From assembly GCA_028718125.1 (NCBI GenBank), contig JAQUMN010000005.1:3784-67783 (forward strand): 64,000 nt of DNA, given 5' to 3'. The translations under genes were made by a program, and so were the position numbers. Source of the stretch: Kiritimatiellia bacterium. GTDB taxonomy: Bacteria > Verrucomicrobiota > Kiritimatiellia > JAAZAB01. The notes below the pieces were generated by a model, which did no database searches, was not told the origin of the DNA, and saw only the letters and a list, made by a program, of their open reading frames with translations. The first letter of the stretch is position 1. Each line of letters begins with the position of its first letter. Shown piece after piece: positions 11,196 through 28,749 of the stretch.

Positions 11196-11295
11196 AGGCA
11201 AGAATAAATACTGGGCAGATTGCCTGTCGGCGGGCAGGCCTGCCCCATTACGGACGACGTGCTGGTAACGGGCAACCGGAAGAAGATTCCCGATA

Positions 11296-11724: not shown

Positions 11725-11746
11725 ACAGCTCTTTTCTCGTTTTTCT

Positions 11747-11776
11747 GCCCGAGTCATTCCGACTCGGGCTTTTTTC
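11747..11776 (+). terminator. rho-independent terminator
   Basis: GCCCGAGTC-ATTCC-GACTCGGGC hairpin followed by TTTTTT. Confidence 0.6.
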
Positions 11777-11833
11777 CCCGTTTAGCGACAGCTCTCATAA
11801 GCCATCGAAAGGTTTATTATCTATAACTCGCTT

Positions 11834-12292: not shown

Positions 12293-15200
12293 TCACGGGA
12301 TTACAACCGCCATGGACAGTATATCGTTTCGGAATCGGTCCAATTCTTTTCGCATAGCCCTATTCGTTATAATATCCCACGAAATGGGTTGTTTATTCCG
12401 GCGGCCGATTTGAGCCATAGCAGGTACAACACCAATCCTCACGCCCCACTCTGGATTATCCAGCAAAGCCTTGAGCCTCTGAATATCTTCTATCGCGCCA
12501 ATTTCTCCGAGGGCTCGCGCCGCGTGAAACAGCACAGCCTCATTCTTGTTGTCGGTTAAAGCGCGAATAATGTCAGGCCGGGCCGCAGAACCAGCGCTAA
12601 CCAGCACCGATAATGCGGCTATGCGAACATCGTTATCCGGATCGTTCAACATGGCGACGACTGTAGCCATTCCCTCTTCTGTTGTAATTCGCAATGATTG
12701 AACAACGGCTTTTCGAATTCGTGCAGACGGACTTCTGATCAATTTGATGAAATCATCTTTTGCATCGGCCTCATACTCCGTTAATGCGGCAATGGCCGCC
12801 AGACAAACGGCTTCACAAGGATCCTGTAATGCTTTCCGCAAAACGGGGACGGCGACCGATTCGTTCGATTCACCGAGCGCTCGCACGCATGATTCGCGGA
12901 CATCCTCGTTGGGGGAATTCATAAAAGTTGCCAAATAATCGGCTTCCCTTTTTTCGTGTCCGCTAATCCGCGCATGAGCCACCAAGGCTTCGACTTGGAC
13001 CTCAATCGATGTGGAGCATGTCAGTTTCTTTACGACTGAGGCAGCGGCTGGCGAACCAATAAAACCGAGCGCGTGGACGGCTTTTGCCGTAAGGGTTGCA
13101 TCCCTTGACGTTTTTATCTGCTGTAATAAACAGGGAACAGCCTTTTCAGAACGGCAGTAGCCCAATGCGCCAATAACAGCAACGAGAGTCCTCTTGTTGC
13201 CGGCTTTCATCATATTGATCAGAGGGGCAACCGCACCATTCCCTATCTTGCCGATGGCGGCGCTGGCCATTTCGGCCACATCCGGAAATGACAGCTTGAG
13301 TAACGGCAATAAGGCCGGGAGGTCATCGTGTGACGGATATTTCGCAACCATTTGCACGGCATCACGAAGGTCGGCTCTTTCTTTTGATTTCAGCAATGGA
13401 CGAATATAGGGTATAGCTTTAGGGCCGCTGTCCGCCAACAAAGCAATGGCCGTAAGTGACGTATCTTTATCGGGAGCAGTCATCAATCGAATCAGGATAT
13501 CGAGGGCCTTCTCCCCCCATGATCGTAGCAGGCCATAAATAAATTCTGGTTTAACCCATTCTTTTGGATGGGCAAATTCCTTTAATAGATATTCATAAAG
13601 GGCTGCGTGATATTGGGCCGGAATAATCGACGAGGGAACTTCATGTAATGCCCGTACGGCAATTTCAAGAGGCCTTAAGGCCAAATCTTCCGGCAAGCAA
13701 CCGAGAAGACGCGGAATATAGGATTTGATATCTTGGGATAAAATTCCTCCAAGCAATGCAAGGGGTTCCATCCACATCGGATCATACATGTTGGCATGGA
13801 CTATCGCAGCCCATTGTGGTTGCCGGGACAAAGCGCGAGCGACAAGGTATTCCTGAAAAGTAAGGTGGAGGAATGTAAACCAATCGCCCTGTTCGTCCAA
13901 CGGGACGATAATACCGTCTTTGCACAAGTAATTGACAATACTTGGATTTTCAAGACGGCGGAGCATGGCTTTGACAGGGTGGGATTCGTCCATGCGATTC
14001 ATGTAGCCATCGGTTGGATTCCAAAAATAATCCGTCAATTCGGACGAAGCGAGTGTCTCGTTGGGAAAATACTTGAATGCGATATCTTCCAGCAACCGTA
14101 AGTTACACTCAATGACCTCGCTATTGGACATTTGCCCCTTATCGAGCGCCGGCCATTGGCCGAGCATGCCTTTGATAATGACCTCATAGACCTCGCATCG
14201 TTGTGTTGGCAATCGGTCCGACTGTCGCCGGGACGAGTAAACCTTGCAGAGCAACGTGGCCAACAAAGGATTCTGGATCATGCCGGCGACAGATGGCCGC
14301 GCATCCAGGTCGGCCAATAACCGCTGGCTCAGATCAGGATTTGCAGCAAAGAAATTGCCGATAAATCGCGCTGTGTCCGGCTTACGAAAGGGGCATAATT
14401 GGAGTTCCTTGCGCTTCCCTCCAGGCGCACGGTCAAGCGATATGAGGTCGGATTTATAACCGATAACACGCGAACTAATAATCAATCTTGCTTTGACGTT
14501 GGCCGCAAAAACATTCAAGCGCTCAGCAACGCCCTCTTGATTCGATCGGACTTCATCCCATGCATCGAGGTGGAGGACGGAATGATAACGGCACGCTTTG
14601 TTGCCGTCATCCCATAACGAACGCCAGAGGACCTGGATCAATGGGGTCACGATCTTCTGAGTTTGGCACAAGGCAAACAGAATAGCGCCGCCGAAAAGTT
14701 CGTAGTCAGTAAGAAGGGAACCGGGAGCAATGACATCAGCCGACTTTAATAGATCGAGGATGTCATCGGCATGGTTGAGCGCCTCAGCGACCCGCGACAA
14801 GCGGACATAAACGGGAATGACAATAGAGGGCGGGTGTTTCTCGATCTTCGAACCCTGTAAGAGCTTTAATGTCGCTTGAGCGATGAGTTTGGAGTTGAAT
14901 TTTAACCATTCCGTTTTTCCGCTGCCCGGATCGCCCAAAAGAATACATTGATCCAACTGATCTACCCAGTCCTTGACTGGTTTACGATCTGGCGCAGTGC
15001 CTGAATCCCAGGCCGAATTGCGAAACGCGTAAATTTTACTGCGTAATTCCGGTTCCGCTTGAACAGACTCGTTCAGCCGGAATCGTTCTCGCGCCATGAT
15101 ATCCTCGGCCTGCAGAACCTGGCGAAATGGAACTGCGGACAGAGGAATGCGGAGCGCATCAAGCTTGAGATGCAGTCTCTCCAGCAAGGGAGATGCCGAG

Positions 15201-16003
15201 AGATGACGGTTAAGCCAGGCAAGGTAATCAACCAAGCCGGACGTTACATCTGGATATTTGTCATCGCGAACATCTGCCGATGGAGGGCGTTCCGGTTTAA
15301 CGGAGGCCCTTATTTCAGATAATAATTGCTTTAATCCAACAACTTGAACATGCGGCCTTCTCATTTCGATCTTTGCTTCCGTGAGTTTTAAGCGAAATGA
15401 CAGGCCTATATCGGACTTCGCCATCAAATAATTGCGGAAGTTTTCTCTTAAGAAAATCGCCTCTTTATCGGGAAGACGTGTCATTCCATCCGATTTATAG
15501 AACGGCATGCGATTTGACCCGAATCCACGGTGGGTCTGTTGTATCGGCATCCACATAACGCGAACAGCTTCTGCTGGAGCGCGGAAGGTGCTTCGTGTCT
15601 TATAACGTTTCAACGCGGCCAACAACTCGACATCGTCGGCAATATCACCGTAGGACACAACCTGGTCGTTTTTTGCCTGTATGTGTCGATCCAGTATCAG
15701 CGCCATAACGCCAATATGAAAGCGGCTGTCCTGATTCATCGCCTTGACGATTAGGCCTTCTTGCAAGGCTCTGCACTCAGGATAAGCATCGGTCTGAACC
15801 CGAAGCACTCCATTCGGCACATCAATGATCAGACGATTATTTGGCATCTGTACCACCCCGTACGGTTCAGAACGGTCCTCCGAGTTGCTCCCATAAAAAA
15901 AATAGCCGAGAATCGAGTCATAAAAAAGCAAATATTGTCGACATATCGACCAGTCAACGCAGAGCTGGACGCGAGGGCATAGTTGCCAAGCTCTGTGAGA
16001 CAA
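12293..16003 (-). CDS. NACHT/STAND NTPase with unknown N-terminal domain and C-terminal HEAT-repeat array (bNACHT/Avs-like antiviral candidate)
   Basis: Walker A ILLGDPGSGKTEWL and Walker B VLHLDAWDEV (NACHT style hhhhD-W-DE). The C-terminal 400 aa are tandem HEAT/PBS-lyase-like repeats (…VRIAALSVL…, …VRESCVRALGE…). A likely alternative start MPNNRLIID at about 15849 has a GGGGTGG RBS. Confidence 0.75.
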   Translation of the reverse strand: MSHRAWQLCPRVQLCVDWSICRQYLLFYDSILGYFFYGSNSEDRSEPYGVVQMPNNRLIIDVPNGVLRVQTDAYPECRALQEGLIVKAMNQDSRFHIGVMALILDRHIQAKNDQVVSYGDIADDVELLAALKRYKTRSTFRAPAEAVRVMWMPIQQTHRGFGSNRMPFYKSDGMTRLPDKEAIFLRENFRNYLMAKSDIGLSFRLKLTEAKIEMRRPHVQVVGLKQLLSEIRASVKPERPPSADVRDDKYPDVTSGLVDYLAWLNRHLSASPLLERLHLKLDALRIPLSAVPFRQVLQAEDIMARERFRLNESVQAEPELRSKIYAFRNSAWDSGTAPDRKPVKDWVDQLDQCILLGDPGSGKTEWLKFNSKLIAQATLKLLQGSKIEKHPPSIVIPVYVRLSRVAEALNHADDILDLLKSADVIAPGSLLTDYELFGGAILFALCQTQKIVTPLIQVLWRSLWDDGNKACRYHSVLHLDAWDEVRSNQEGVAERLNVFAANVKARLIISSRVIGYKSDLISLDRAPGGKRKELQLCPFRKPDTARFIGNFFAANPDLSQRLLADLDARPSVAGMIQNPLLATLLCKVYSSRRQSDRLPTQRCEVYEVIIKGMLGQWPALDKGQMSNSEVIECNLRLLEDIAFKYFPNETLASSELTDYFWNPTDGYMNRMDESHPVKAMLRRLENPSIVNYLCKDGIIVPLDEQGDWFTFLHLTFQEYLVARALSRQPQWAAIVHANMYDPMWMEPLALLGGILSQDIKSYIPRLLGCLPEDLALRPLEIAVRALHEVPSSIIPAQYHAALYEYLLKEFAHPKEWVKPEFIYGLLRSWGEKALDILIRLMTAPDKDTSLTAIALLADSGPKAIPYIRPLLKSKERADLRDAVQMVAKYPSHDDLPALLPLLKLSFPDVAEMASAAIGKIGNGAVAPLINMMKAGNKRTLVAVIGALGYCRSEKAVPCLLQQIKTSRDATLTAKAVHALGFIGSPAAASVVKKLTCSTSIEVQVEALVAHARISGHEKREADYLATFMNSPNEDVRESCVRALGESNESVAVPVLRKALQDPCEAVCLAAIAALTEYEADAKDDFIKLIRSPSARIRKAVVQSLRITTEEGMATVVAMLNDPDNDVRIAALSVLVSAGSAARPDIIRALTDNKNEAVLFHAARALGEIGAIEDIQRLKALLDNPEWGVRIGVVPAMAQIGRRNKQPISWDIITNRAMRKELDRFRNDILSMAVVIP

Positions 16004-16038: not shown

Positions 16039-16437
16039 ATGATGGACGACTATTTCCACAGGATTTATGGGTTATACATTGATTGGGCCGGCAACATACC
16101 GGACAGCAAGCTGCTTACCATTATACGGCTAACCCTGTTATTCGCCGTGCCAACGGCGATCTATTACTGGGCATTTATCTCCGGACGACGCGGGGGATTT
16201 AGCCGGTTAGTGGCGGCGGTGCTTGCCGATGGACTGGTTCTCGCCGTTCCCATCCACGCGCCATACGACCTAACGGCCAGAGCCTGGATTTTTACCGGTT
16301 GTATCATGGCGTTGGCCTACAGCCCAGGGTCTCTTCCTTTTCTGGTTTATCGAGAGGCGGGGCGACAGCGTCGTCTGCGGCTGGGATTGTATGTCCTAAT
16401 GGCTGTGCTTCTTGTGGTTGGACTGCTGTGGAACTGA
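16039..16437 (+). CDS. small integral membrane protein (about 4 TM)
   Basis: Hydrophobic segments LLTIIRLTLLFAVPTAIYYWAFI, LVAAVLADGLVLAV and LYVLMAVLLVVGLLW. Confidence 0.45.
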   Translation: MMDDYFHRIYGLYIDWAGNIPDSKLLTIIRLTLLFAVPTAIYYWAFISGRRGGFSRLVAAVLADGLVLAVPIHAPYDLTARAWIFTGCIMALAYSPGSLPFLVYREAGRQRRLRLGLYVLMAVLLVVGLLWN

Positions 16438-16449
16438 TAGGGGATCGCC

Positions 16450-17088
16450 ATGTTTACGATAATTAAAACGTGGATACGCAAAGTCTGGCGGCAATTCATT
16501 GGCCAACCTGACATGCCGATTGTTATTCGTCCGATTATAGAAGGCGGCGATAACAGGCACTGGTGGCGCCATAACGCGAAGAATCACGATGCGGAGGAAG
16601 ATCATTTCCGGCGGATGGACCCGACAGAGGCTGCTCGGGAAATCTTCGCGCCCAGTCATGGAGAGGAAGATAGTTACGGGTTTACACGGGTTGGTCCCGA
16701 TGGAACTGTTCCCCATCAGGGCGAACAGTGGGACCGTGAACACAATGCCATGCGGGTGAGACGGCGTAAGTTCATGGTGATCACATGCTCACAAGGCGTT
16801 GTCCGTTCTGCAGAGGAAATCAACGGTATTTGCAGTGAATGTCATGGAACTGAAGCAACCGTTGTTCGCTGCTCTGTTTGTGGCGTCATCCTCTGCCAGC
16901 TTCATGCCTATGTCTTGGAGCATCCTACCGGGAATGTGGTTTATTGCCGGACACATCTCGAAGAAGCCCAGGACAACTGGGACACATGGGAAGCCTATGA
17001 CGTTCAACGGGGAGTGCGGCCCAGTCGGAGTGTGTATCCTGGGCGACCGCACGCAGTGGCGCGATATTTACAAAAACAAGGTGGCTGA
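16450..17088 (+). CDS. Cys-rich (zinc-ribbon) hypothetical protein
   Basis: C-terminal CSECHG...CSVCGVILC...CRTH. Lies 13 nt after the membrane protein gene and directly before the ATPase gene. Confidence 0.45.
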   Translation: MFTIIKTWIRKVWRQFIGQPDMPIVIRPIIEGGDNRHWWRHNAKNHDAEEDHFRRMDPTEAAREIFAPSHGEEDSYGFTRVGPDGTVPHQGEQWDREHNAMRVRRRKFMVITCSQGVVRSAEEINGICSECHGTEATVVRCSVCGVILCQLHAYVLEHPTGNVVYCRTHLEEAQDNWDTWEAYDVQRGVRPSRSVYPGRPHAVARYLQKQGG

Positions 17089-17089
17089 A

Positions 17090-18799
17090 ATGACTAACGA
17101 CAAACCAAACAAGCATACCCAGTTCGAGCGGGCGCTCATAGAACTGGAAATGGCCATGAAGTCGGGAAAGATCGCCGACCCACTAATTCAGGAGTACTGG
17201 CGCCGTGGACTGTCGCCTCTTGGCAATGGTGAGCATGGAGCGAAGGCACAGGCAATTCTGGAGAATCTGCTGACAGGACCCTCAATCCTGGCCGGTCTTG
17301 CATTGCCGTCCGAGCCGCCGGAGCCCGAAATAGATCCCAGGTTGTTGGTGTTCATCGGCCGGCGACGGGCCCTGCGTCGGATGACTGGGATTTTGAAGAA
17401 GCTACTGACTATGCACCTGCTTATTCAAGGACCCACGGGCTCTGGAAAAACAAATCTTATCTGGTTCATCATTCAACAGCTAATTGAAGCCGGCGTGAAA
17501 GTAATTTTCCACGATCACAAGAATGAGGGCCGTAAATTGCTGCGGCGATATTCCGGCGTCGTTGTTCTCCGAGTATCGGACTTCCGGGAAAACCTCCTTA
17601 AACCGGTGGGAGACCCGAAGCAGTATTTCTCGACATTCTGGAGCGAGTTTGCGCGCGCTTACAAAATCCGCCGCGAGACAGCCGTGAAACTCGTCGGTAT
17701 TTCTATGCGAGTTTTTGCCGGCTTGAAGCCTGATGAGCCCCATCCCAGTCTTTATGACTTTGCCTGCATGTTGCACAGGATGGCGAAAAGCGAAGGCGAC
17801 TCGACACTGGCAACTGCCGCCGTGGCATTGGAATCGCTGAATGCAACACTGGGAAAAGCGGCGACTGTCCGCGAAGGGTCTTGTGCCGATGATGTCTTCA
17901 ATGTGGTTGTGATGCAATGTCATGGGCAACCCTCTGAGTTTCTCGAATTCTTCATGGGTATCCGTTTATTCCGTAGCCATGTGAAGGCGATTGCCCATGG
18001 ACATACGGGTGAATTGACGTCCGTGGTCGTCAGCGACGAGGGGGGCATTGAATTCGCCAAAGAGTTCAGTGCTGAGGCCGGATCAGGATACATCACTCCG
18101 CAGAAACGGTTGATTACCCAATGCCGAAGTACGGGGACCGGTTTGGTAATCGCCACCCAAAGTGTCAGCGCGATTGACCCTGCCGTCATATCAAATATCG
18201 GATCGTTCGTATGTCTGAAGGCGCAGTCTGATTCCGATGTGCGTATCAGCGGTCGGCTTCTGGGTTTCTCCGATGAGCGATTTGACGAAGTTCGGAATAT
18301 TCCACGCTGGTCTGGCTTGCTCAAGACGCCGAGCCATTCGGGCGCTGTTCTTGTTGATATCCCTGAGGTGGACATGGGCGACTACATGAGCGACGAGGAA
18401 CTGGATAGATTAAATCGCACGGCGTTTGAGCGTTTGAACACGCAATCGATTTTTGCGCCGGTCCATCAGGACGCCGGAGCGCCAATATCCTACAGGGACA
18501 TCCTCGGCGAGACGACGCCACCTGCTCCGGCAGCATCAGACTCAGATCAATTATTCGACTTCCGGGCCGAACACACGAGCTTCATTCGCGAAATTATTGC
18601 ACACCCTGATGCCAGCGTCGTGGAGCATTACGTGAACCTTGGGTGGAGTGCCGGACGGGGTAATCGTGTGAAAACCGATCTCATGGACAATGGCATCATT
18701 GAGTCACAGCGCCAGACTTCGCGCAATGGCCGGCCTATCGAACAGCTTGTACTGACGGAAAAAGGGAGGGCGCTTTTCGATGACGCATCAAAAGCATAG
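17090..18799 (+). CDS. P-loop ATPase of the HerA/FtsK/VirD4-VirB4 clade
   Basis: Walker A HLLIQGPTGSGKTNLI followed by VIFHDHKNEG (the DpxGE box characteristic of HerA/FtsK/TraG-like ATPases); later GLVIATQSVSAIDP. The track ORF begins at 16799, but the ATG at 17090 directly follows the upstream stop and avoids overlap. Confidence 0.65.
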   Translation: MTNDKPNKHTQFERALIELEMAMKSGKIADPLIQEYWRRGLSPLGNGEHGAKAQAILENLLTGPSILAGLALPSEPPEPEIDPRLLVFIGRRRALRRMTGILKKLLTMHLLIQGPTGSGKTNLIWFIIQQLIEAGVKVIFHDHKNEGRKLLRRYSGVVVLRVSDFRENLLKPVGDPKQYFSTFWSEFARAYKIRRETAVKLVGISMRVFAGLKPDEPHPSLYDFACMLHRMAKSEGDSTLATAAVALESLNATLGKAATVREGSCADDVFNVVVMQCHGQPSEFLEFFMGIRLFRSHVKAIAHGHTGELTSVVVSDEGGIEFAKEFSAEAGSGYITPQKRLITQCRSTGTGLVIATQSVSAIDPAVISNIGSFVCLKAQSDSDVRISGRLLGFSDERFDEVRNIPRWSGLLKTPSHSGAVLVDIPEVDMGDYMSDEELDRLNRTAFERLNTQSIFAPVHQDAGAPISYRDILGETTPPAPAASDSDQLFDFRAEHTSFIREIIAHPDASVVEHYVNLGWSAGRGNRVKTDLMDNGIIESQRQTSRNGRPIEQLVLTEKGRALFDDASKA

Positions 18800-19214
18800 T
18801 CGCGGTTACGAATTAATGGACCACCGCCAGGCCAAGGTTGAAGGCCGAGCGATGCTTCTCGCAGCCGGGTTTGATCTAGCTCAGTGCGAATACCGGAACG
18901 CGGATGTGGTCGGGATGCGGCGGGCCGGCAACCGAATTTACGTCCTAACTGTGGAATTTGAGAGGACCGCGCGGAACGCGTTAAGAAATATTCGCCGTAA
19001 TCTAGCAAATGGTAGCGATTGCGTTTTGGAAGCGTGCATGACGCCATCAGCCAAGGACGCGATACAACGACTAATTCGGCAAAAATTGAGGCCCGATGAG
19101 CAAGAGAAAGTTCGTGTAGTGCTGTGTGACGAACTGAGTATCGAGCTTTTACGCTCATTGAATGGGGAAAACAAGGTTGATTCAGAGTTTATTCAGGTTT
19201 CTTCGCGGAGTTAA
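18780..19214 (+). CDS. hypothetical protein, possible restriction-endonuclease-like fold
   Basis: Start overlaps the ATPase stop by 20 nt. ...GFDLAQCEYRNADVVGMRRAGNRIYVLTVEFERT resembles a D...ExE/K nuclease core. Confidence 0.4.
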   Translation: MTHQKHSRGYELMDHRQAKVEGRAMLLAAGFDLAQCEYRNADVVGMRRAGNRIYVLTVEFERTARNALRNIRRNLANGSDCVLEACMTPSAKDAIQRLIRQKLRPDEQEKVRVVLCDELSIELLRSLNGENKVDSEFIQVSSRS

Positions 19215-19315
19215 TTCCGCGGAAATGCGGGTTTGTTCAGATTGATTCACAAAGACACTGCAGCCGATGTGACAGTAGGAAAAACAAAGCAGTCACGGAA
19301 AGGAGGTGAAAACAG

Positions 19316-19570
19316 ATGAACTCCAAGAACATTACGATCGTGAAGCCTGGAGCAGGCGAAAACGCGCTGAGCGAAGCATATGACATCACGATTCAGCCTG
19401 GACACACGGGCAAGCAGGTGGTGGAGCAACTGAAGCTTAAGGGCGAGTATAGCCTGACGAAAGGCGACGGCAAGCCGGTTGATATGTTGGCGGACCTTTT
19501 CCCGCTCGTTGAAAACGGAGAAAAGTTGTTCGCAACGACGCCGGCGACGGTTGGACGGTTGGCGGCATAA
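19316..19570 (+). CDS. ubiquitin-like beta-grasp protein (BilA-like)
   Basis: 84 aa. Strong RBS AAAGGAGGTG. First gene of the Ubl-E2-JAB-E1 operon. C-terminus is ...TVGRLAA (Gly followed by a 4-residue tail). Confidence 0.55.
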   Translation: MNSKNITIVKPGAGENALSEAYDITIQPGHTGKQVVEQLKLKGEYSLTKGDGKPVDMLADLFPLVENGEKLFATTPATVGRLAA

Positions 19571-19572
19571 CA

Positions 19573-20205
19573 ATGATACGGGGGATGACGGCTGTGAGTG
19601 ACGATTTTGACGCTCTTGAATATCTCAAAACACATCCTGATTGGTTCAAAAAGCCTGTACTGATAGGTATGAATCAGAATAAGGATTCGGAAGACGATTC
19701 GATTCAGGCGCGGGCAGACCGTTTCCTCCGCCGTCATCGCCCTGTCATTAATATTCAGCCGCCGATTACAATTCGGCAGTTTCGGCATATTGAAGTGCCC
19801 AATAACTGGCTGCCTTCTGGCAAGGTTAATCAAAGGCAAAATACAGCCTCTTCAATAGTACTAAAAGCCGTACGGCCATATGCCCGCAGATCTCGTACTT
19901 CAAGCTATTGGGAGGATTCAGGATGGGAACATAGAGGCACAAACCTTATCGGATACTATAAGGCTGGGGATAATTCGTATAGGGGAGCTGTAGAACTGAC
20001 GGACAGTAGCTATCGGCCCATGAAGTTCTACATCTATGATCCGCCCAGTGTCATCCTAGATGGGCCACATGGGGCATGTTATCATTGGCAAGGACTGTCG
20101 GGACTAAATAAGTACTGGATTCATTTTAGCGAGGGACCGGCAAACATAGACAGTGGAATAATTCAAATCGAGCGCTCTCTATCGGAAGCACTGGGAGTTG
20201 AATAA
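19573..20205 (+). CDS. E2-like ubiquitin-conjugating-fold protein (BilB-like)
   Basis: Position between the Ubl and JAB genes. Candidate catalytic Cys in ...LDGPHGACYHWQG. Assignment is by operon context plus a weak motif. Confidence 0.45.
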   Translation: MIRGMTAVSDDFDALEYLKTHPDWFKKPVLIGMNQNKDSEDDSIQARADRFLRRHRPVINIQPPITIRQFRHIEVPNNWLPSGKVNQRQNTASSIVLKAVRPYARRSRTSSYWEDSGWEHRGTNLIGYYKAGDNSYRGAVELTDSSYRPMKFYIYDPPSVILDGPHGACYHWQGLSGLNKYWIHFSEGPANIDSGIIQIERSLSEALGVE

Positions 20206-20225
20206 TCAAAAAAGGAAATACGAAC

Positions 20226-20915
20226 ATGGACAACGCAAAACCAAATAAAGACATGGGTATCATCTATGACTTTCTGGCAAAAACAGCTAACAGATTGGAG
20301 GCCAAATTACTGGATGCTTGCCGACAAAGTGATGAACCCATGGCGTTGAGTATTCTTACTGAATTGCTCGATGTTTCAAACGTTAAACGTGTATCGGAAA
20401 GCGCCATAGCGGATATGCCGAACGAGATCGCGATCCCGACATATATGCTGAGCACGCTCACGATTCAGGAAGCCTGCGAAGTTCTAACGAAAACCATGGA
20501 TGAAGATCTGCGGTTTGCGACAGGGCTGGTTGTTGCACCTATGAAATATGCCGTAACGCGGCTGTTGCAGTTCGAGCTGAAGAGAAAGTCTGCTGTAGCG
20601 GCAGAGGGCGATCAGCAGGCAGTGGCCCGTCTTCTGATCGGTTTGCATAATCACGATCATAAGCTGTTCATGACTTGGCACAGTCATCCTGGTTCCGGTG
20701 CGAATTCGACTATGCCATCGCCAATCGATATGGATTTCCATCGGCGACTGGAGGTCGGGAACTACCCGGTGATTGGGGGTATTGTCAATAGGCAGGGATA
20801 CGTGCGTTTCTTCTCGTACAAACGGCCGTTCAGGGTTTCGATCTATGGAAAAGGAATGGAGGTAGTAAATGAACAACACAATGTTTTTAAACTCGATACG
20901 ATCAGTGCGGTTTAA
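20226..20915 (+). CDS. JAB/JAMM metalloprotease, deubiquitinase-like (BilC-like)
   Basis: JAMM motif WHSHPGSG...S..D (HSHP...PSPIDMD) and an upstream Glu. Confidence 0.7.
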   Translation: MDNAKPNKDMGIIYDFLAKTANRLEAKLLDACRQSDEPMALSILTELLDVSNVKRVSESAIADMPNEIAIPTYMLSTLTIQEACEVLTKTMDEDLRFATGLVVAPMKYAVTRLLQFELKRKSAVAAEGDQQAVARLLIGLHNHDHKLFMTWHSHPGSGANSTMPSPIDMDFHRRLEVGNYPVIGGIVNRQGYVRFFSYKRPFRVSIYGKGMEVVNEQHNVFKLDTISAV

Positions 20916-21678
20916 TTCCAACGGTTTTCATCCTGAGAAATTGGAGGAAGGCCAGAAATCTGCAACGGCCAGCCAGGAGCAGTTGCCGGGATTCAATCAG
21001 CAGAACCTTCGGAACGCCCGGATTCAGATGATTGGATGTGGCGGCATTGGCGGTTCCATTTTGGACAACCTTGTGCGGAAGGGATGTGGACACGTTGATG
21101 TTTACGATGGTGACGATGTTGAACTTGGCAATCTCGGACGGCAGAAGTTTTTCCCGTCCGATGTCGGGAAAAACAAAGCGCTCTGCGGTGCGCGAAACGC
21201 CATGCCCCATGCTTCCTGGCCGACCGAGATTGTTGCTCATCCCGTGTGGTTTGAGGATGCGGTGAACCATGGCATGGTCGGCGGCGCGAGTGCCGCGATT
21301 GTGGGGCCTGACAGGGATAGCACAAGGGTCTATTCCAGCAGGTACTTCTATAAAATGTGCCCGGTACTCTTTGTGGGGATCGGTACACGCGCCGAACATG
21401 GATACGTGTTTGTGCAGAAGCCTGGCGAGGCATGTTTTGCATGTCTTTTTCCTGATGCCACGACAAACAAACGTGCACCGTGTCCTGGCACACCGGCGAT
21501 GATTGACATCCTGCTGGTTACCGCCGGGCTCGTGCTTACGGCATTGGATGCTCTCCTGATGCCGGGGCGAAAGATCAATTGGAATTATTGGGATATCTAT
21601 CCGTCTGGAGCCATTTTAACGCAGCCATTGACTATTGAACGGCGGAAGGATTGCCCGATATGCGGGAAGTTCGGTTAA
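20869..21678 (+). CDS. E1-like ThiF/MoeB-family adenylyltransferase (BilD-like)
   Basis: IQMIGCGGIGGSILDNLVRKGCGHVDVYDGDDVELGNLGRQ Rossmann/ThiF motif. Zn-site CFAC...CPIC. GGAGG RBS. Overlaps the JAB gene by 47 nt. Confidence 0.8.
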   Translation: MNNTMFLNSIRSVRFNSNGFHPEKLEEGQKSATASQEQLPGFNQQNLRNARIQMIGCGGIGGSILDNLVRKGCGHVDVYDGDDVELGNLGRQKFFPSDVGKNKALCGARNAMPHASWPTEIVAHPVWFEDAVNHGMVGGASAAIVGPDRDSTRVYSSRYFYKMCPVLFVGIGTRAEHGYVFVQKPGEACFACLFPDATTNKRAPCPGTPAMIDILLVTAGLVLTALDALLMPGRKINWNYWDIYPSGAILTQPLTIERRKDCPICGKFG

Positions 21679-21688
21679 GCATACTCAT

Positions 21689-22054
21689 ATGGAGGCGGTT
21701 ATCATGATTATTCTTTACATGTTTCTATCGGCAATGTGTGCCTTGGGACTTGTCTATCTGCTTGAAATTGGATGGATCAATCGTCCGCCTTATATTGCGA
21801 CCCAGTGGCCGAAGGGACGGGCGATGCGATTCATGTGGACGGCAAGCGGCATCGTTTTGGCAATCAGTCATATCCCCTTGGGGATCCTGGCGGCTCTTGC
21901 CTGCCTGCCCGTGTGCCTGGCTCACCTGTCGTTGGTGGATCGAAATCCCGCGATAAGAATTGGCGTGGGTGAAGTGTTCGGACAAATCTGTCAGATGACG
22001 AAGGCATCATTCCGCCGGTTCATGGATCGAACCCGAATCGGACCTCACTGCTGA
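21689..22054 (+). CDS. small membrane protein
   Basis: 3 predicted TM helices (IMIILYMFLSAMCALGLVYLL, ...GIVLAISHIPLGILAALACLPVCLA). Confidence 0.4.
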   Translation: MEAVIMIILYMFLSAMCALGLVYLLEIGWINRPPYIATQWPKGRAMRFMWTASGIVLAISHIPLGILAALACLPVCLAHLSLVDRNPAIRIGVGEVFGQICQMTKASFRRFMDRTRIGPHC

Positions 22055-22067
22055 ATCGAGGTAAAAC

Positions 22068-22451
22068 GTGGGCACATTATCATCAATCAATGTCCTGTTG
22101 GTCGTAATAATCGGCGTTGTTACCGCGATAGTCAGTTGGCGGGTGTTGTGCCAGGCACTGAAGTTTAAGAACCCGGTCCTAGGGATATGTGTTGGCGCTC
22201 TGACAGGTTTGGGTTTGGCAACGAATATAGGAGGAACTATGTCTGCACTCTTGATTCCCTACGCGGCGCTCGGGATTGCGATTATCTTGATGTTTCTTAT
22301 GGCCCCGTTTCTGAACCGAAAGAAGGACAAGGAAAAGAAGTCGTTATCGCCTGAGCCCACAAATAACGTGTGGAAGCCGGAAGACCCTTGGGAGCGGGAA
22401 ATTCGTCTGAATGGAAAAATGGCTGGCAAATTCAAGGCGAGAAAGCGGTAA
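22068..22451 (+). CDS. small membrane protein with Lys-rich C-terminal tail
   Basis: GTG start. 3 TM segments, then ...NRKKDKEKK.... Confidence 0.4.
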   Translation: MGTLSSINVLLVVIIGVVTAIVSWRVLCQALKFKNPVLGICVGALTGLGLATNIGGTMSALLIPYAALGIAIILMFLMAPFLNRKKDKEKKSLSPEPTNNVWKPEDPWEREIRLNGKMAGKFKARKR

Positions 22452-22491
22452 CGGGAATGGATGCTGTTTTCAAACAGGAGTTGACCCCGCA

Positions 22492-22977
22492 ATGGAAATG
22501 GATGTCGAGCATATGTCAAGGGATGCCAGGATGTGGCGGATTGGCCACATCCTGTCGAAAGGTATTTCCCTTATGCTCGCCAAGGAAATGGAGGAACGAG
22601 AAGCGCTGGCACGAAATGCACTAGCCACGCAATTCGGCGAAAACAACCGCGAAGGACAAACGACAAACTTGTGTGATGACAGCAAGGCGATCCTGGACTA
22701 TCTCAGGCGGGTGGGTCCAGCTTCACCGACTAATATCTGGCGCTACACGGGAATATCAAGGACGACCGTGTTCCGAAGGTTGAAAGAGCTGACTAAAGTT
22801 GGCTTATTGCAGAAGACGGGAAGGGATAAATCTGTGCAATATATGACGATCGGATTTGGCAATAATGATCCTAAACCCGATAATCCTTCGGCAATAAATG
22901 ACGGGAAGAGCGATTCCGGCATTAGTGCTGTGGATGGATCTGTTGAAATGCAGGATTTTACTCTAAACAAGAGATAA
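22492..22977 (+). CDS. winged-helix transcriptional regulator
   Basis: ...DYLRRVGPASPTNIWRYTGISRTTVFRRLKELTKVGLLQKTGRDKSVQY is a wHTH. Start chosen at the ATG at 22492 to avoid overlap. Confidence 0.45.
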   Translation: MEMDVEHMSRDARMWRIGHILSKGISLMLAKEMEEREALARNALATQFGENNREGQTTNLCDDSKAILDYLRRVGPASPTNIWRYTGISRTTVFRRLKELTKVGLLQKTGRDKSVQYMTIGFGNNDPKPDNPSAINDGKSDSGISAVDGSVEMQDFTLNKR

Positions 22978-24139
22978 GTTCGGAGACACGTTCTGAGTTC
23001 GGTGAAATATGGGCGCGCATGCTTGGCGTTCGAAGTAATTCCTCCAGGTTTTTGCGACTGCACGCGTGATATTTCGACATTATCCAGACAAATTCAGCCG
23101 TGTAGTCCGGGATAGCCCGAAGGAGTGAGTAACGAGCATGCCGAATATGATCATCTTCATTTGGAATCCATTTAGCGCCGCTCTTGGCCAGAATATGAAT
23201 GATTTTAATTTTCTCCCGCGACTCCGGGGTATCCACATTCCTCTGTCTGGCACTTGAATAAAGACTAAAAGAATAACCTAGTCCCGAAAGAAGGTTTTGG
23301 ATTGCTGAACATCCTCCGTTAGATTGATCGTTCGGGTTGACTCCGCATTCCAAAAGATACGTGATTAAGGCGGATGCATTCTCACCATGCGCGTATCGAA
23401 TTGCACTGGCAATAGCCGGATGTTTCGGATCGATTCTGATCTGTCTCATTCGAAAAACGTCATAATGTTCATATAGGGCGGCATATTCTAAGGCGCTTAT
23501 ACCATCCTCTGCGTCCTCTTCGTGTTCAGGATCAACAGGCCCGGAGGCATATAAATCGGCTCCTGCCCATACCATCAAGGAAATCCATTTCATATTGCCT
23601 TCCTTGCAATGATAACGAAGGGCAATGTTAATCTGTTGCTGGAAAGATGGAAATCGAGCCTTGTATTTGATTGCTATCTTCAAGGCAGTACGAATTCTGG
23701 AGCAAAGGGCTTGGGCGAGAGGATTCCCCGTGTCGACATCAGCGCCCCGTTCGATGAAATATTCCATAATATCGGGTTGCCAGGTCGAAAATACGTCATT
23801 CATATCTACAGATTTAGCGTTAGCACCATTTTCAACCAGAAGTCGGACCATATCGAAGCGTCTATTCCATAAGACACGAGAAAGTGCATCATACTTTTGA
23901 TTGCGCTCGATTTCGGCGCCACCTTCCAGCAAAACTTGTACAAGACTGTGGAATCCGCTTTCGATGGCATACTGTAAAGGACTTCGCGGACGTGCTCCCT
24001 TTTCCGGAGGAAGGGGTGGATTCACGGGTTTTCCTGACCTTATCCATTCCTGAACTGCAAATAGTTGGCCCGTCTTACACATCTCGATGAGGGGCTTAAC
24101 TTCTTCGTATGAGCTTGCTCTATTCATTTTTGCCACCAT
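22958..24139 (-). CDS. ankyrin-repeat protein
   Basis: Multiple ANK-like repeats (SPLQYAIESGFHSLVQVLLEGGAEI..., ISALEYAALYEHYDVF...). Confidence 0.6.
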   Translation of the reverse strand: MVAKMNRASSYEEVKPLIEMCKTGQLFAVQEWIRSGKPVNPPLPPEKGARPRSPLQYAIESGFHSLVQVLLEGGAEIERNQKYDALSRVLWNRRFDMVRLLVENGANAKSVDMNDVFSTWQPDIMEYFIERGADVDTGNPLAQALCSRIRTALKIAIKYKARFPSFQQQINIALRYHCKEGNMKWISLMVWAGADLYASGPVDPEHEEDAEDGISALEYAALYEHYDVFRMRQIRIDPKHPAIASAIRYAHGENASALITYLLECGVNPNDQSNGGCSAIQNLLSGLGYSFSLYSSARQRNVDTPESREKIKIIHILAKSGAKWIPNEDDHIRHARYSLLRAIPDYTAEFVWIMSKYHACSRKNLEELLRTPSMRAHISPNSERVSELISCLE

Positions 24140-25434: not shown

Positions 25435-25458
25435 GGTTGGGTCTGTTGGGACTCATTT
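25435..25458. promoter_or_regulatory. conserved 24-bp motif (copy 1) downstream of ParB-HTH-like gene, upstream of the next gene
   Basis: GGTTGGGTCTGTTGGGACTCATTT. 23 of 24 identical to 30488-30511. Both copies lie 91-105 bp upstream of the next minus-strand gene start. Confidence 0.35.
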
Positions 25459-25510
25459 GGTGCCTCGAAAAAAAGGCACAGGACGAGTTTCTCGGAGGGC
25501 TAAGGTCACT

Positions 25511-25945
25511 TTAAGTGGTACTGATCGACACGATTGTCTGGTGCTCCTGGCGTATTTTTTCGAATGCGCTCTGGCGAGCAGAGACAGTTCTTTTTGCAAG
25601 AATGCAGCGCAGTCTATTTGCAGAGAAATGGCGCAGTTCTTGCCGCGTTTTGAGGGTTGCGACATAGCTGATAACTTCTTCTGGGAGGTTCAAAAGATTC
25701 ATAATTTGTGTTACATTAGCTCGAGAAATGCCGTTTTCCCTGGCGATTCTAGCTCTGGTTAGTTCCGGATCAGCTAGCAGGGCCTTCTGCCAAGCAAGAG
25801 CGGTTTGTACGGGGTTCTTGGACGTGCCGGGCAAAGATGATTCGGGCACGTTTGGCCTTGTGGCTTGCTCGTAGGCTACGACCGGATATGGGAAAGGATG
25901 CGCAATAAACGGACGCGCGCCCCACCTGGGAAATGGGATGCCCAT
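25511..25945 (-). CDS. ParB-HTH-like small DNA-binding protein (paralog A)
   Basis: IARENGISRANVTQIMNLLNLPEEVISYV resembles the ParB/Spo0J HTH (..SHVANLLRLLELPEEV..). N-terminus MGIPFPRWGARPFIAHP is shared with paralog B. Confidence 0.5.
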   Translation of the reverse strand: MGIPFPRWGARPFIAHPFPYPVVAYEQATRPNVPESSLPGTSKNPVQTALAWQKALLADPELTRARIARENGISRANVTQIMNLLNLPEEVISYVATLKTRQELRHFSANRLRCILAKRTVSARQSAFEKIRQEHQTIVSISTT

Positions 25946-26286
25946 GACGATGGAGATAAGGTCATAGTTCGTATCGGGCAGCGGCCTGCGGAGCCAACCC
26001 TTTGGAAATACGAACTTCGGGTCTCATCTTCACTTCCCTATAATATTCAAGTATTTTCCGGGGAATCCTTAATCAAGTACCTGCGAAAAGTTCGTATGTC
26101 GCACTTGATGGTGCAAACAGATAACGAACATTATCGGTATCATTTGTTCTTCAGCGATCATAAATCACTTCCGTCGTTTTCCCTTCTGTTTTGTCATATC
26201 TCCATACCCCGACTGTCAGTCATCGTGGGATCCAACGAAAATAATGCCACTGGCAAGTGATCATAAGATGAGGCATATTGGTCGTC

Positions 26287-28749
26287 ATGGAAGCGAACGA
26301 CCCAAAGTCTCTCATATTACGAAATAAGATCGATACAGTTCGGCGACAATTGTACGAATTTGAATCGCAGACATTGTTGCTGAAGGATCTACTCCGACAA
26401 CTTGAAAAGCAGCAAGCCGCACGGTCAGGCCCATCAGTATCTTCCCCCACTGCGTTGGTTCAGTCACCGCTTCACTGGACGGATGACAACGTGCGATTAT
26501 TCGCCTCGCTTTTTCGTGGTCGAGAGGATGTGTTCCCACGGCGATGGGAAAGCCGAGCTGGAAAAAGCGGATATTCACCCGTTTGCAGGAATGAATGGAA
26601 GCGCAATATCTGCCCAAAGCCAAAAGGAAAGTGTCATGATTGTCTCCATAAAGATTACGTGCCGCTGACTCTGGATCACATCCGCCAGCATCTCTCCGGG
26701 CGCGTGACCATCGGCGTCTATCCTCTGTTGCAAAACGAGACATGCCATTTTCTAGCGGTGGATTTCGATAAAAGCACATGGAGGGAGGATGTTACCGCAT
26801 TTATCCGGGTATGTAGCCAGCACAAAATAGCCTATGCTATGGAACGATCCCGGTCAGGCCATGGCGCACACGTTTGGTTTTTCTTCGAGCATCCTCTGCC
26901 CGCGCGGTTGGCCCGGCGTTTTGGTTGTGCACTATTGACAGAAACCATGGATACTCGTCATCAGGTCGGTTTAGATTCCTATGACCGGCTGTTTCCCAGC
27001 CAGGACACCATGCCTAAGGGCCAATTCGGCAATCTGATAGCACTTCCATTGCAAGCGGAGCCGGCTCGTTCTGGCAACAGTCTGTTTGTCGACGACCGGT
27101 TTATCCCGTTTGCCGATCAATGGGCATTTCTGAATACGATTGGACGTTTGCCCGAAACCGAAGTTCGGGCAATCGAGGAAGACGCGGCGCGACGTGGGCG
27201 CATTTTGGGTGTCCGGGCAGTGATCAGCGAAGATGACGAACAGCCCTGGAACACACCGCCTTCAGGCCAAAAACAGGTGCCTATAACCGGTCCGTTGCCA
27301 TCAACAATCGAGATCGTGTATGCCAATATGCTGTTTATACCGAAGGCGGTACTACCATCCGGCCTGATTAATCGGCTCATCCGGCTGGCCGCCATTCAAA
27401 ATCCGGAATTTTACCGAGCACAAGCCATGCGACAATCCACGTTCGGAAAACCCCGGATTATTTCGTGCGCGGAGGTATTGGAAAAATACCTCGCGTTACC
27501 AAGGGCGTGTTTAGATGACGTGCAATTGCTCCTAACCGAATTGGGTATTCACACTGTTTTATCAGACAAAAGATGTGCCGGGAAACCATTGCACGTCCAA
27601 TTCCGGGGGACGTTATCACCGGAACAAGAACAGGCGGTTAGCGCAGTTTGCGACCATGACTTTGGTGTGATCTCTGCGCCGCCGGCTTTCGGAAAAACCG
27701 TAGTCGGGGCTAAAATCATTGCCAATCATGGCGTTAACACGCTGATTCTGGTCTGTCGGCAACAGTTGTTGGACCAGTGGCGTCAACGCCTGGCCACGTT
27801 TTTAGACCTCCCGATTGAATCTATCGGGTTGATCGGGGGCGGAAAACGGAAACCAACAGGATTGATCGATGTGGCGATGATCCAATCGTTGATACGACAG
27901 GGCATTGTCGCTGATACGGTGGCAACGTATGGGCATGTTATTCTCGACGAATGTCATCACGGCTCAGCGGTGACCCACGAGTTGATCCTTCGCCAAGCGC
28001 ATGCCCGATACATTACGGGATTGACGGCGACACCCACACGGAAAGACGGACATCATCCCATCGTCTTTATGCAATGCGGCCCCATCCGTTACGCGTTAAG
28101 CGGTAAACAGTCCGCCCAACACGGACTTTTCTCCCATCGTGTCGTCACTCGACTGACCGGGACGGACACGATTGGCCCTGAAGAGCAGATTCAAATGCAG
28201 GACATCTACTCGGCCATTATACATGACGAGAACCGGACAAGTCTGATCGTCAATGACATTCGCGCGTCCATCACCAAGGGGAAAACTCCGTTAGTGCTGA
28301 CCGAACGCCGCGAACATTTGGATACTCTGGCAAAGCGCCTTACACCAGTTACCCGGCATCTAATCATCCTTCATGGGAACATGGGGATCAAACAGCGTCG
28401 GGAAATTATGGCCAGACTAGCCGCCGTACCAGAGAACGAATCTCGCATTCTGCTTTCCACCGGTAGATACATCGGTGAAGGCTTCGATGACTCACGGCTG
28501 GACTGCCTGTTTCTGACAATGCCCATCTCCTGGAAAGGTACGCTTCAGCAGTACGCCGGCCGCCTGCATCGCCTTCATCATGCCAAGCGTGAAGTCATCA
28601 TCTATGATTATGTGGATGCCAATATTCCGATTGCTCGCCGCATGTTCGAGAAGCGAAAGAAGGGGTATGCCGCTATGGGGTATGAACTGGAGGACAGTAA
28701 AATTCAGGCAGAGATACCGCTTCCGAATGACCCCTTATTGAATTTGTAG
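26287..28749 (+). CDS. primase-polymerase (AEP-like) domain fused to SF2 DEAD/DEAH helicase
   Basis: N-terminal half has a Cys/His cluster and ...VYPLLQNETCHFLAVDFDK...GHGAHVWFFF (prim-pol style). C-terminal half has helicase motifs I (ISAPPAFGKTVVG), II (VILDECHHGS), III (GLTATPTRKDG) and VI (QQYAGRLHR). The track start at 26278 is TTG; the ATG at 26287 is preferred. Confidence 0.7.
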   Translation: MEANDPKSLILRNKIDTVRRQLYEFESQTLLLKDLLRQLEKQQAARSGPSVSSPTALVQSPLHWTDDNVRLFASLFRGREDVFPRRWESRAGKSGYSPVCRNEWKRNICPKPKGKCHDCLHKDYVPLTLDHIRQHLSGRVTIGVYPLLQNETCHFLAVDFDKSTWREDVTAFIRVCSQHKIAYAMERSRSGHGAHVWFFFEHPLPARLARRFGCALLTETMDTRHQVGLDSYDRLFPSQDTMPKGQFGNLIALPLQAEPARSGNSLFVDDRFIPFADQWAFLNTIGRLPETEVRAIEEDAARRGRILGVRAVISEDDEQPWNTPPSGQKQVPITGPLPSTIEIVYANMLFIPKAVLPSGLINRLIRLAAIQNPEFYRAQAMRQSTFGKPRIISCAEVLEKYLALPRACLDDVQLLLTELGIHTVLSDKRCAGKPLHVQFRGTLSPEQEQAVSAVCDHDFGVISAPPAFGKTVVGAKIIANHGVNTLILVCRQQLLDQWRQRLATFLDLPIESIGLIGGGKRKPTGLIDVAMIQSLIRQGIVADTVATYGHVILDECHHGSAVTHELILRQAHARYITGLTATPTRKDGHHPIVFMQCGPIRYALSGKQSAQHGLFSHRVVTRLTGTDTIGPEEQIQMQDIYSAIIHDENRTSLIVNDIRASITKGKTPLVLTERREHLDTLAKRLTPVTRHLIILHGNMGIKQRREIMARLAAVPENESRILLSTGRYIGEGFDDSRLDCLFLTMPISWKGTLQQYAGRLHRLHHAKREVIIYDYVDANIPIARRMFEKRKKGYAAMGYELEDSKIQAEIPLPNDPLLNL

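Follow-up and report, generated by a model that had tools for sequence, protein, structure and literature searches.

A 64,000-nucleotide stretch of DNA, here called the window, from a 134.8-kb contig of a metagenome-assembled genome (MAG) of a Kiritimatiellia bacterium contains four adjacent genes for a small ubiquitin-like protein (Ubl), a 210-amino-acid (aa) protein with a conserved Cys/His domain (the Cys-domain protein), a JAMM/JAB metallopeptidase (JAB), and an E1-type activating enzyme (E1). Our analysis suggests that this quartet probably belongs to a new family of cassettes for thioester-type Ubl conjugation, which form part of integrative mobile elements and are coupled to an ATPase resembling DNA translocases. 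To our knowledge, Ubl conjugation in bacteria has been shown experimentally only in antiphage settings, namely in type II CBASS, in Bil, and probably in Bub. The family would add a lineage that combines a minimal, UBA5-like E1 capable of thioester formation, an E2-position Cys/His domain not recognized by databases, and a near-universal Ubl tail, and it would place Ubl conjugation in the core of integrative elements, beside a DNA-pumping ATPase. Should the Cys domain prove to be a genuine E2, the range of sequences known for E2s would be broadened; should it not, the domain would represent a new kind of Ubl acceptor.

The four proteins of the cassette

The open reading frames (ORFs) of the quartet lie on the same strand at 19316–19570 (Ubl, 84 aa; PHW60_03300), 19573–20205 (Cys-domain protein, 210 aa; PHW60_03305), 20226–20915 (JAB, 229 aa), and 20869–21678 (E1, 269 aa). 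The first two gaps measure 2 and 20 nucleotides (nt), and the last two genes overlap by 47 nt. A strong Shine–Dalgarno sequence (AAGGAGGTGA) precedes the Ubl gene, and an alternative GTG start codon at 19594, used by NCBI and in most homologues, would shorten the Cys-domain protein to 203 aa. The initial annotation of the window, made from its letters alone, had described four co-oriented, tightly packed genes; they are present exactly as described, and the motifs quoted there could all be located: HSHPGSG...SPID in the JAB, GCGGIGG, CFAC, and CPIC in the E1, and ...TVG-RLAA at the C-terminus of the Ubl. That the genes are real is indicated by their conservation. The quartet and six genes flanking it are syntenic in independent contigs (related loci used in our comparisons are labelled L001, L002, and so on). 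In every comparison of these ten genes in which dS could be estimated, dN/dS lies between 0.06 and 0.30, and each of the genes is under purifying selection in at least one comparison; dS was saturated in several pairs, including that of the Cys-domain gene with its L002 counterpart. A second, diverged copy of the cassette (PHW60_03715/03720) is located on the same contig outside the window, and its Ubl and Cys-domain protein are 83% and 54% identical to those of the window, respectively.

The E1 contains a single ThiF domain at residues 43–232 (Pfam PF00899; 91.5 bits with a cutoff of 28.1), a family that was matched by 28 of 28 E1s from related loci. It aligns over nearly its full length with Escherichia coli MoeB (1jw9_B, 249 aa) and ThiF (1zud_1, 251 aa), and over residues 45–195 with UBA5. 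In an alignment of seven family members sharing 36–83% identity (A5), the invariant residues include Gly56 and Gly58 of the GxGxxG motif, Asp80, the stretch Asn88-Leu-x-Arg91-Gln92 (NLGRQ), Lys103, Asp148, and the four cysteines of the zinc site, Cys189, Cys192, Cys262, and Cys265. The GxGxxG motif, Arg finger, Mg-binding Asp, and optional four-Cys zinc site that characterize the ThiF/MoeB/E1 adenylating superfamily are all there. Also invariant in the seven proteins is Cys205, which is part of an Arg-x-Pro-Cys motif in the crossover loop. Minimal E1s carry their thioester cysteine in this loop, as exemplified by Cys184 of ThiF and Cys250 of UBA5, and from its position Cys205 is a candidate for the catalytic (thioester) cysteine. 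No rhodanese domain was found on the E1. The NCBIfam models for ThiF, MoeB, and SAMP-E1 scored far below their cutoffs, the only PADLOC models matched by the quartet were Cap2 E1–E2 models, and these only by the E1, and a search of plasmids with the E1 returned generic ThiF genes only.

The Ubl showed no sequence-family match in Pfam, PADLOC, PHROGs, or NCBIfam, nor in a phmmer search of the PDB. An AF2 model calculated from an alignment of 24 sequences (pLDDT 65.5) displays a strand–strand–helix–strand–(helix)–strand topology with a disordered tail from residue 77 onward. Nearly all Foldseek matches of this model in the PDB are beta-grasp proteins; the best is UFM1 bound to UBA5 (6h77_Q), followed by ISG15, ubiquitin, SUMO, MoaD, and BilA of the Bil complex 8tyz (8tyz_B), with E-values of about 0.007–0.03 and TM-scores of 0.42–0.64. 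Together, topology and matches give moderate support to the beta-grasp fold that had been proposed for this protein. In the close-family alignment (A2), Gly80 (..ATVG) is invariant and is followed by zero to four variable residues. About 99 distinct Ubls of the wider family end in ..A-x-V-G, with Gly at the last position in 83 and Ala in 5, after which come either one to seven residues, in complete ORFs, or a whole fused domain. By analogy with other Ubl precursors, the RLAA tail following Gly80 would be a removable extension.

The JAB reached 24.7 bits against the Pfam family Prok-JAB, 0.3 bits under the cutoff of 25, and 12 of its relatives matched the family at E ≤ 1e-3. Its putative active site (Glu93, His152-x-His154, Ser165, and Asp168) is invariant in seven sequences sharing 26–72% identity (A6) and comprises the complete Glu...His-x-His...Ser-x-x-Asp signature of JAMM/JAB metallopeptidases; the N-terminal 80 residues or so are specific to the family.

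Close relatives of the Cys-domain protein are scarce, with only 14 among 5.8 billion proteins. However, a profile search of 1.84 billion representative sequences detected its C-terminal domain of about 100 aa in 560 clusters at E ≤ 1e-3 and in 270 at E ≤ 1e-10, most of them proteins of 100–260 aa. The N-terminal half of the 210-aa protein is variable, whereas the C-terminal domain is conserved (alignments A1 and A3) with the consensus YW..GW...G..L.GYYRT..GS..G.IE....FYI..PP..L..GPH..CF...G.G.Y.IHF...P...D.GI..IE..L.E. Counted over the 78 domains of the loci that were fetched, His166 is retained in 74, Cys169 in 75, His184 in 74, and Glu200 in 74–75. Two proteins, encoded at 3083–4036 of L010 and 2–535 of L052, contain tandem Cys domains, and in each of them His166, Cys169, and His184 have disappeared from the N-terminal copy, which retains the structural residues. 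Such joint loss is as expected for a catalytic or ligand trio. In L006–L009, L037, and L058, the Ubl is fused ahead of the Cys domain, which then follows directly behind the conserved Val-Gly, and in none of the loci mapped is the Cys-domain gene separated from the quartet. The Cys-domain protein is the fastest-evolving part of its sub-module (see below), being 41% identical to its L002 counterpart as opposed to 59–75% for its neighbours. Its most likely predicted role is that of an E2-equivalent thioester carrier, and we consider this role probable. The His-Pro-Cys motif of the E2-like enzymes ATG3 and ATG10 resembles His166-x-x-Cys169 and may serve as a lead. In L004, the Cys-domain gene (10265–10892) is apparently frameshifted, consisting of a 121-aa call and a second tblastn segment, which could reflect a pseudogene or an assembly error.

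The ten-gene block and its relatives in mobile elements

The quartet had been taken for a complete four-gene operon, but it turned out to be the centre of a conserved block of ten genes spanning 16039–22451, all on the plus strand. In order, the block encodes a protein with three transmembrane (TM) helices (TMa), a zinc-finger protein (ZN), an ATPase, a 144-aa protein (P144), the quartet, and two small membrane proteins (TMb and TMc). The ten genes are colinear in L001–L004, L012, L013, L015, and L018, and the upstream four are also present in L006–L009, L037, and L049, which represent branches at 24–31% identity. Neighbouring genes of the block touch or overlap; in L002 and L004, the start codon of the Ubl gene lies within the end of the preceding gene. 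The block lies within an island of about 50% GC (about 5–34 kb) surrounded by sequence of about 65% GC. At the left edge of this island is a fragment of an ABC-3 permease gene (5288–5824) corresponding to profile positions 94–254 of 258; no att-like direct repeats bounding the 5–34 kb island were found.

The ATPase (17090–18799, about 569 aa) is a soluble P-loop protein of the HerA/FtsK superfamily, with the Walker A motif GPTGSGKT and a winged-helix-like region at its C-terminus. It matched DUF87 above the cutoff (32.9 bits), and HerA_C, TrwB_AAD_bind, and FtsK more weakly; further matches were to the PADLOC models mad8 and HerA and to the NCBIfam P-loop models CedD, CedB, VirB4, and TraD. 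It is syntenic in all close loci. In PHROGs, only the ATPase and ThiF gave matches. ZN (16450–17088, 212 aa) has a Cys/His-rich C-terminal region in which Cys128, Cys131, Cys141, Cys144, Cys149, and Cys166 are invariant and His152 and His169 mostly conserved (A7). The region persists in L006 and L009, which are distant loci, and it matched zf-AN1 weakly (E 0.059). It is probably a two-zinc finger, its pattern being compatible with the cross-brace type, and as a guess, ZN could be an adaptor, a specificity factor, or an E3-like factor. P144 (18780–19214), whose gene overlaps the stop codon of the ATPase gene, is conserved and syntenic (A8) but matched no family in Pfam, PHROGs, or NCBIfam.

The remaining block proteins were assigned to the membrane by hydropathy. 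TMa (16039–16437, 132 aa, about three predicted TM helices) has syntenic homologues in L001, L002, L004, L006, L009, L012, L013, L015, L037, and L049, and a dN/dS of 0.08 against L002. TMb (21689–22054, about 116–121 aa, two to three TM helices) and TMc (22068–22451, 127 aa, about three TM helices), both syntenic as well, have dN/dS values of 0.12–0.17 and 0.22–0.28, respectively; TMc is the last consistently conserved gene of the block.

The two halves of the block differ in their histories. Relative to L013, the upstream four genes are 29–44% identical and the downstream six 68–88%, whereas relative to L002 the upstream four are 49–70% identical and the Cys-domain protein 41%. Identities to L015 are similarly unequal between the two parts. 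The block thus consists of two sub-modules that recombine at the gap before the Ubl gene. This gap (19215–19315, 101 nt) contains a weak hairpin with a T-run at 19216–19231 as well as the very strong ribosome-binding site of the Ubl gene; a scan for promoters and terminators yielded nothing above chance.

Relatives of the cassette are abundant, with 388 loci in JGI metagenomes retrieved by one JAB peptide pattern in addition to the 560 domain clusters mentioned above. The order Ubl, Cys-domain protein, JAB, E1 is kept in all of the approximately 40 fetched metagenome loci of at least 6 kb. Their surroundings are those of mobile elements: among 142 proteins encoded no more than four genes away from the quartet at 23 loci, the most frequent Pfam families were Replic_Relax (14), Phage_integrase (13), TrwB_AAD_bind (8), TraG-D_C (6), DUF87 (6), T4SS-DNA_transf (5), MT-A70 (5), and ParB_N (5), and a look at individual genes bore this out. 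Two layouts recur. The first reads ATPase, Replic_Relax, p143, tyrosine integrase, Ubl, Cys-domain protein, JAB, E1; the second reads Ubl, tandem Cys-domain protein, JAB, E1, a protein of about 140 aa, TraG-like ATPase, Replic_Relax, a protein of about 100 aa, and serine recombinase. In the branch with Ubl fusions, a MerR-like gene and the gene of a large serine recombinase come after the quartet, and housekeeping genes come next. The association of the quartet with a core of ATPase, Replic_Relax, and integrase persists at protein identities of 30–40% and with different types of recombinase.

Species representatives in GTDB contain 56 loci, with each quartet gene seen in at least 48 of them. 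Nearly all are from Acidobacteriota (Bryobacterales, Terriglobia) and some from Planctomycetota. The full eight-gene array of the first layout occurs in 31 genome loci, and some MAGs carry two to three copies. The only strain-titled record that is not a MAG is that of Paludibaculum fermentans T20B24, a named host that suggests experimental testability. In six loci of an Acidobacteriota-type branch (L054, L057, L060, L066, L077, and L134), a protein of about 370–410 aa follows the E1; since ParB_N and MT-A70 each occur in five neighbour proteins, it may be a ParB–methyltransferase fusion. No relatives were detected among PLSDB plasmids by tblastn with the 210-aa protein and two distant Cys-domain proteins, among INPHARED phages with the 210-aa protein, among IMG/VR viral contigs in a scan with the Ubl alignment, or in a first scan of genome contigs with alignment A1, and tRNA scans at eight genome loci were empty.

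These observations can be combined into a plausible reaction sequence. The 84-aa beta-grasp protein, as sequence and model show, is made as a precursor. The JAMM peptidase would then remove the tail after Gly80, as suggested by its intact site, the variable tails, the fusions, and the analogy to BilC and BubC. Given its invariant residues, the homodimer-type E1 would adenylate Gly80 and form a thioester on Cys205, in the manner of UBA5 and ThiF. From there the Ubl would be handed to Cys169 of the 210-aa protein, the predicted E2-equivalent, and finally be attached to targets, an attachment that the JAMM peptidase could reverse. Because the quartet of distant relatives adjoins a TraG/TrwB-like coupling ATPase, Replic_Relax, and an integrase, the conjugation would presumably serve the element itself, by controlling its transfer, establishment, or maintenance or by excluding competitors.

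A further-reaching reading seems to us possible but doubtful. It holds that Ubl conjugation is an obligatory core part of a large, unrecognized family of small integrative mobilizable elements, in which it controls horizontal transfer. These elements would occur in Acidobacteriota, Planctomycetota, Kiritimatiellia, and other lineages; they would pair a UBA5-like E1 with an E2-equivalent domain that is unrelated in sequence to known E2s and possibly has a new fold; and the targets of conjugation would be the DNA-translocation machinery of the element itself or proteins of the recipient cell.

Relation to known systems and alternative explanations

In outline the cassette resembles Bil, to which it had been assigned by the initial annotation. 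A Ubl, a JAMM peptidase, and an E1-type enzyme do occur together here in Bil gene order, and the component set (Ubl, E2, JAB, E1, encoded by separate genes) is the same. Bil Ubls carry a conserved Gly followed by nonconserved residues that the JAMM peptidase removes, and likewise, removal would take place here. The annotation's proposal that the tail after the Gly needs to be removed fits the roughly 99 family Ubls; what had been considered a peculiarity is none, because pre-processing of the Ubl by the JAB is already documented for Bil. In BilB, catalytic-site residue Cys138 is followed by a conserved His151 (PMC10557695). A Cys with a conserved His some 13–15 residues further on is shared by Bil, by the E2-like proteins of operon type 6d (see below), and by the Cys domain, in which His184 lies 15 residues after Cys169. 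Neither Bil nor this cassette includes an E3 of known type.

There are also differences. Both Bil types are defined by an E1 with IAD–AAD–CYS architecture (PMC11601596, PMC10557695), that is, a pseudo-dimer (IAD–AAD) of more than 500 aa with an inserted CYS domain. In contrast, the E1 described here is a single ThiF domain of 269 aa with its candidate cysteine in the crossover loop; its small size, noted before as a peculiarity, is the feature that excludes membership in Bil. The Ubl, the JAB, and the 210-aa protein showed no detectable sequence relationship to Bil: phmmer found no match for any of the three in the PDB, and nothing in PADLOC, Pfam, NCBIfam, or the PDB sequences ties them to Bil. 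Our E1 matched 57 PDB sequences at E ≤ 1e-3, and the corresponding E1 chain in the Bil complex 8tyz was not one of them. Bil also lacks the embedding in a ten-gene operon with an ATPase and membrane proteins. With this E1 architecture and no sequence link, the cassette is Bil-like in outline but not a member of Bil. Antiphage function and a location in defence islands characterize Bil; Replic_Relax, integrases, and TraG/TrwB-type ATPases dominate the neighbourhood of the relatives of this cassette, and the island in the window contains some conflict genes. The initial annotation had named homologous operons linked to sulfur-carrier or biosynthetic genes, rather than to defence islands, as an outcome that would count against its proposal. 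Part of this came about: the relatives typically lie in a mobilization and integration core and not in defence islands, but they are not tied to sulfur or biosynthetic genes.

Bub shares with the cassette a minimal homodimer-type E1 resembling UBA5 and ThiF. In type I Bub, the Ubl and E2 are fused (BubAB) and cleaved by the JAB of the system (PMC11601596), and the Ubl–Cys-domain fusions in L006–L009, L037, and L058 are comparable. An inactive E2-like copy beside an active one is a known theme in Bub/6E, resembled by the tandem Cys domains, whose N-terminal copies recall inactive E2 variants. However, Bub operates with oxyester intermediates and without a catalytic Cys in its E1 and E2, whereas here Cys205 is invariant and Cys169 nearly so. 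Bub is further characterized by Ubl–E2 and JAB–E1 fusions in type I and an E2–E1 fusion in type II, as opposed to four separate genes in the window; in the relatives, JAB and E1 are always encoded separately, even where the Ubl is fused to the Cys domain. DUF6527 (BubE) was found neither in the ten block proteins nor in the other window ORFs scanned, and it is not among the 25 commonest families of the 142 neighbour proteins.

Mobile elements also carry the PRTRC (ParB-related, ThiF-related) cassette, known from plasmids and ICEs, and the operon type 6d that Iyer, Burroughs, and Aravind described in 2006; ParB-domain genes lie near the quartet in some relatives. The 6d E2-like proteins lack the classical His and have a conserved His after the Cys, and the 6d Ubl has a C-terminal Gly, all features that recur here. 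On the other hand, Pfam Prok-E2 families including Prok-E2_B were not matched, and no counterpart of the conserved alpha-helical 6d protein was identified. The NCBIfam model PRTRC_ThiF gave 41 bits on the E1, well under its cutoff of 144.75, and PRTRC_A to PRTRC_E were matched neither by window proteins nor by 105 core proteins from 27 loci. The partners differ as well: in our family they are Replic_Relax, an integrase, and an ATPase of the HerA/FtsK or TraG type. If the protein of about 370–410 aa after the E1 is a ParB fusion, it would echo the ParB–ThiF pairing of PRTRC.

The eukaryotic UFM1 system (UBA5–UFC1–UFM1) likewise uses a minimal E1 with a crossover-loop Cys. Maturation of UFM1 removes a short C-terminal extension and leaves Val-Gly at the end of the modifier, although the enzymes that do so are Cys proteases (UfSP) and not JAMM peptidases. 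UFC1 shows no profile similarity to the Cys domain, and the likeness to UFM1 is one of functional analogy only. Archaeal SAMP/UbaA/HvJAMM1 and the sulfur-carrier pairs CysO/Mec+ and QbsE/QbsD share the single-domain ThiF-type E1 with a zinc site, the beta-grasp protein with a C-terminal Gly, and a trimming or deconjugating JAMM peptidase. They have no gene in the E2 position and are tied to sulfur transfer, whereas a dedicated Cys-domain gene is always present here. Of two further assignments, type II CBASS is unsupported, since the E1 is not fused to an E2 and, in line with what had been stated at the outset, a Pfam scan of ORFs between 3.5 and 34.3 kb detected no CD-NTase family; a sulfur-carrier pathway was rejected as the principal explanation, since the E1 has no rhodanese domain and biosynthetic neighbours are missing.

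Several results weigh against a thioester-type cassette belonging to an integrative element. The E2-like label given to the 210-aa protein found no backing in profile comparisons: no Pfam family, Prok-E2, UQ_con, and RWD included, was matched by 42 plus about 27 members of the Cys-domain family, no NCBIfam family was matched, and a search of PDB sequences with the Cys-domain profile returned nothing at E ≤ 10. In hhalign comparisons with four classical E2s and UFC1, the Cys domain reached probabilities of 0.1–0.2%. UFC1, used as a control, reached 17% against this thin E2 profile and had its catalytic Cys in register, which is the only check on the reference sequences. The AF2 model of the 210-aa protein from 14 sequences had a pLDDT of 43, and its Foldseek matches were meaningless. 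No integrase was found among the ORFs scanned in the island of the window, which holds several conflict-type genes (a HEAT-repeat NTPase, NERD, a TOTE AEP–helicase, and AbiE). The families of the upstream ATPase differ between branches, so the link to "an ATPase" is one of functional analogy and not of strict orthology. A literature search found no paper on the Cys-domain/Ubl cassette family or its connection to an ATPase.

The conflict-type genes leave room for a role in defence, the cassette being cargo of the element. Under this explanation, a Bil-like antiphage system would attach its Ubl to phage structural proteins upon infection, as BilABCD does, and the genes of the ATPase and the membrane proteins would either be accessories or have nothing to do with it. 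Component set and gene order as in BilABCD and precursor processing as in Bil agree with this, as do the presence of NERD, the HEAT NTPase, TOTE, and AbiE close by both in the window and in L002 and the ATPase matches to the PADLOC HerA and mad8 models; the fast evolution of the Cys-domain protein is what one would expect of a target-recognizing E2 in an arms race, and defence cargo is frequent on mobile elements. We nonetheless regard it as rather unlikely. Cargo usually turns over, yet the quartet stays with a core of ATPase, Replic_Relax, and integrase, and at several loci translation of the Ubl gene is coupled to that of genes upstream of it, in addition to the E1 architecture and the failure of both sequence and HMM searches to match Bil components, as described above.

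That none of the E2 tests on the Cys domain was positive brings up the question of whether the 210-aa protein is an E2 at all. The system could instead work without an E2, like SAMP/UbaA/JAMM or Urm1, or be a sulfur carrier like CysO/Mec and QbsE/QbsD, the other components of which (JAB, ThiF, and a tailed beta-grasp protein) are the same; the E1 aligns over its full length with the SAMP-activating E1 model, MoeB, and ThiF. The Cys/His domain would then be a substrate, an adaptor, a different enzyme, or a zinc-binding module, the His-x2-Cys...His arrangement being able to form a metal site. We judge an E2-less system to be improbable, and these roles for the domain equally so. The missing rhodanese domain and the low NCBIfam scores for ThiF, MoeB, and SAMP-E1 do not fit it, and no sulfur-acceptor, sulfur-metabolism, or biosynthetic genes occur in the loci mapped; the Cys-domain gene is always within the quartet and at times fused to that of the Ubl, and the His, Cys, and His vanish together in duplicated copies, as a catalytic centre would. 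A precedent exists in the CEHH protein of type II Bil, which was first read as a metal binder and later shown to be an E2 (PMC10557695). Iyer et al. speculated in 2006 that mobile Ubl operons might have an addiction role (PMC1779556). A selfish maintenance module, in which opposing activities (E1 and Cys-domain protein versus JAMM peptidase) are encoded together and make loss of the element harmful, with no direct part in transfer or defence, would agree with the strict presence on mobile elements in several copies per genome. It is highly improbable, as there is no direct evidence for it, known addiction modules are much smaller, and it would not account for why genes for an ATPase, a zinc-finger protein, and membrane proteins are always adjacent and coupled to the quartet.

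Other features of the island and the window

Directly behind the block, a gene at 22411–22977 on the plus strand encodes a 188-aa winged-helix DNA-binding protein of the IclR/MarR type (HTH_IclR, 29.8 bits; MarR_2), a possible regulator. It is loosely conserved beside the block; its homologue in L004 lies 1.3 kb downstream. Two ankyrin-repeat proteins, which are unusual in bacteria, are encoded in the island at 22958–24139 and 6036–6791 (minus strand), and one of these genes follows the block directly and is convergent with it.

On the other side of the block, a set of genes recurs in L001, L002, and L004. It comprises a Pribosyltran-like gene (10026–10706), a DUF6573 gene (11296–11724), the NERD gene (11834–12292), and the gene of a 1236-aa HEAT-repeat protein (12293–16003, minus strand) that is 35% identical to its L002 counterpart; in the window, a RadC-like JAB gene (9117–9578) is located ahead of the set. 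The recurring genes (10026–16003) look like part of the same element backbone.

Further downstream, the island contains a direct repeat of about 560 nt (25435–25996 and 30488–31048, 84–96% identity) that corresponds to two ParB–HTH genes. Between the repeats lie the gene of the TOTE-type AEP-primase/helicase (26278–28749; PF22548, 329 bits) and the AbiEii/AbiEi toxin–antitoxin pair (28768–30383). The high-GC region directly after the island harbours a giant ORF of 2841 aa (34621–43146, minus strand). A second low-GC island at 57162–63802 starts at a tRNA-Asn gene (57162–57236) and a large serine recombinase gene (57195–58937, minus strand), behind which lie the gene of a DEAD-box helicase of 1104 aa and a DprA-like gene. 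The PHW60_03715/03720 copy of the cassette, further along the contig, may belong to an element that begins with this island.

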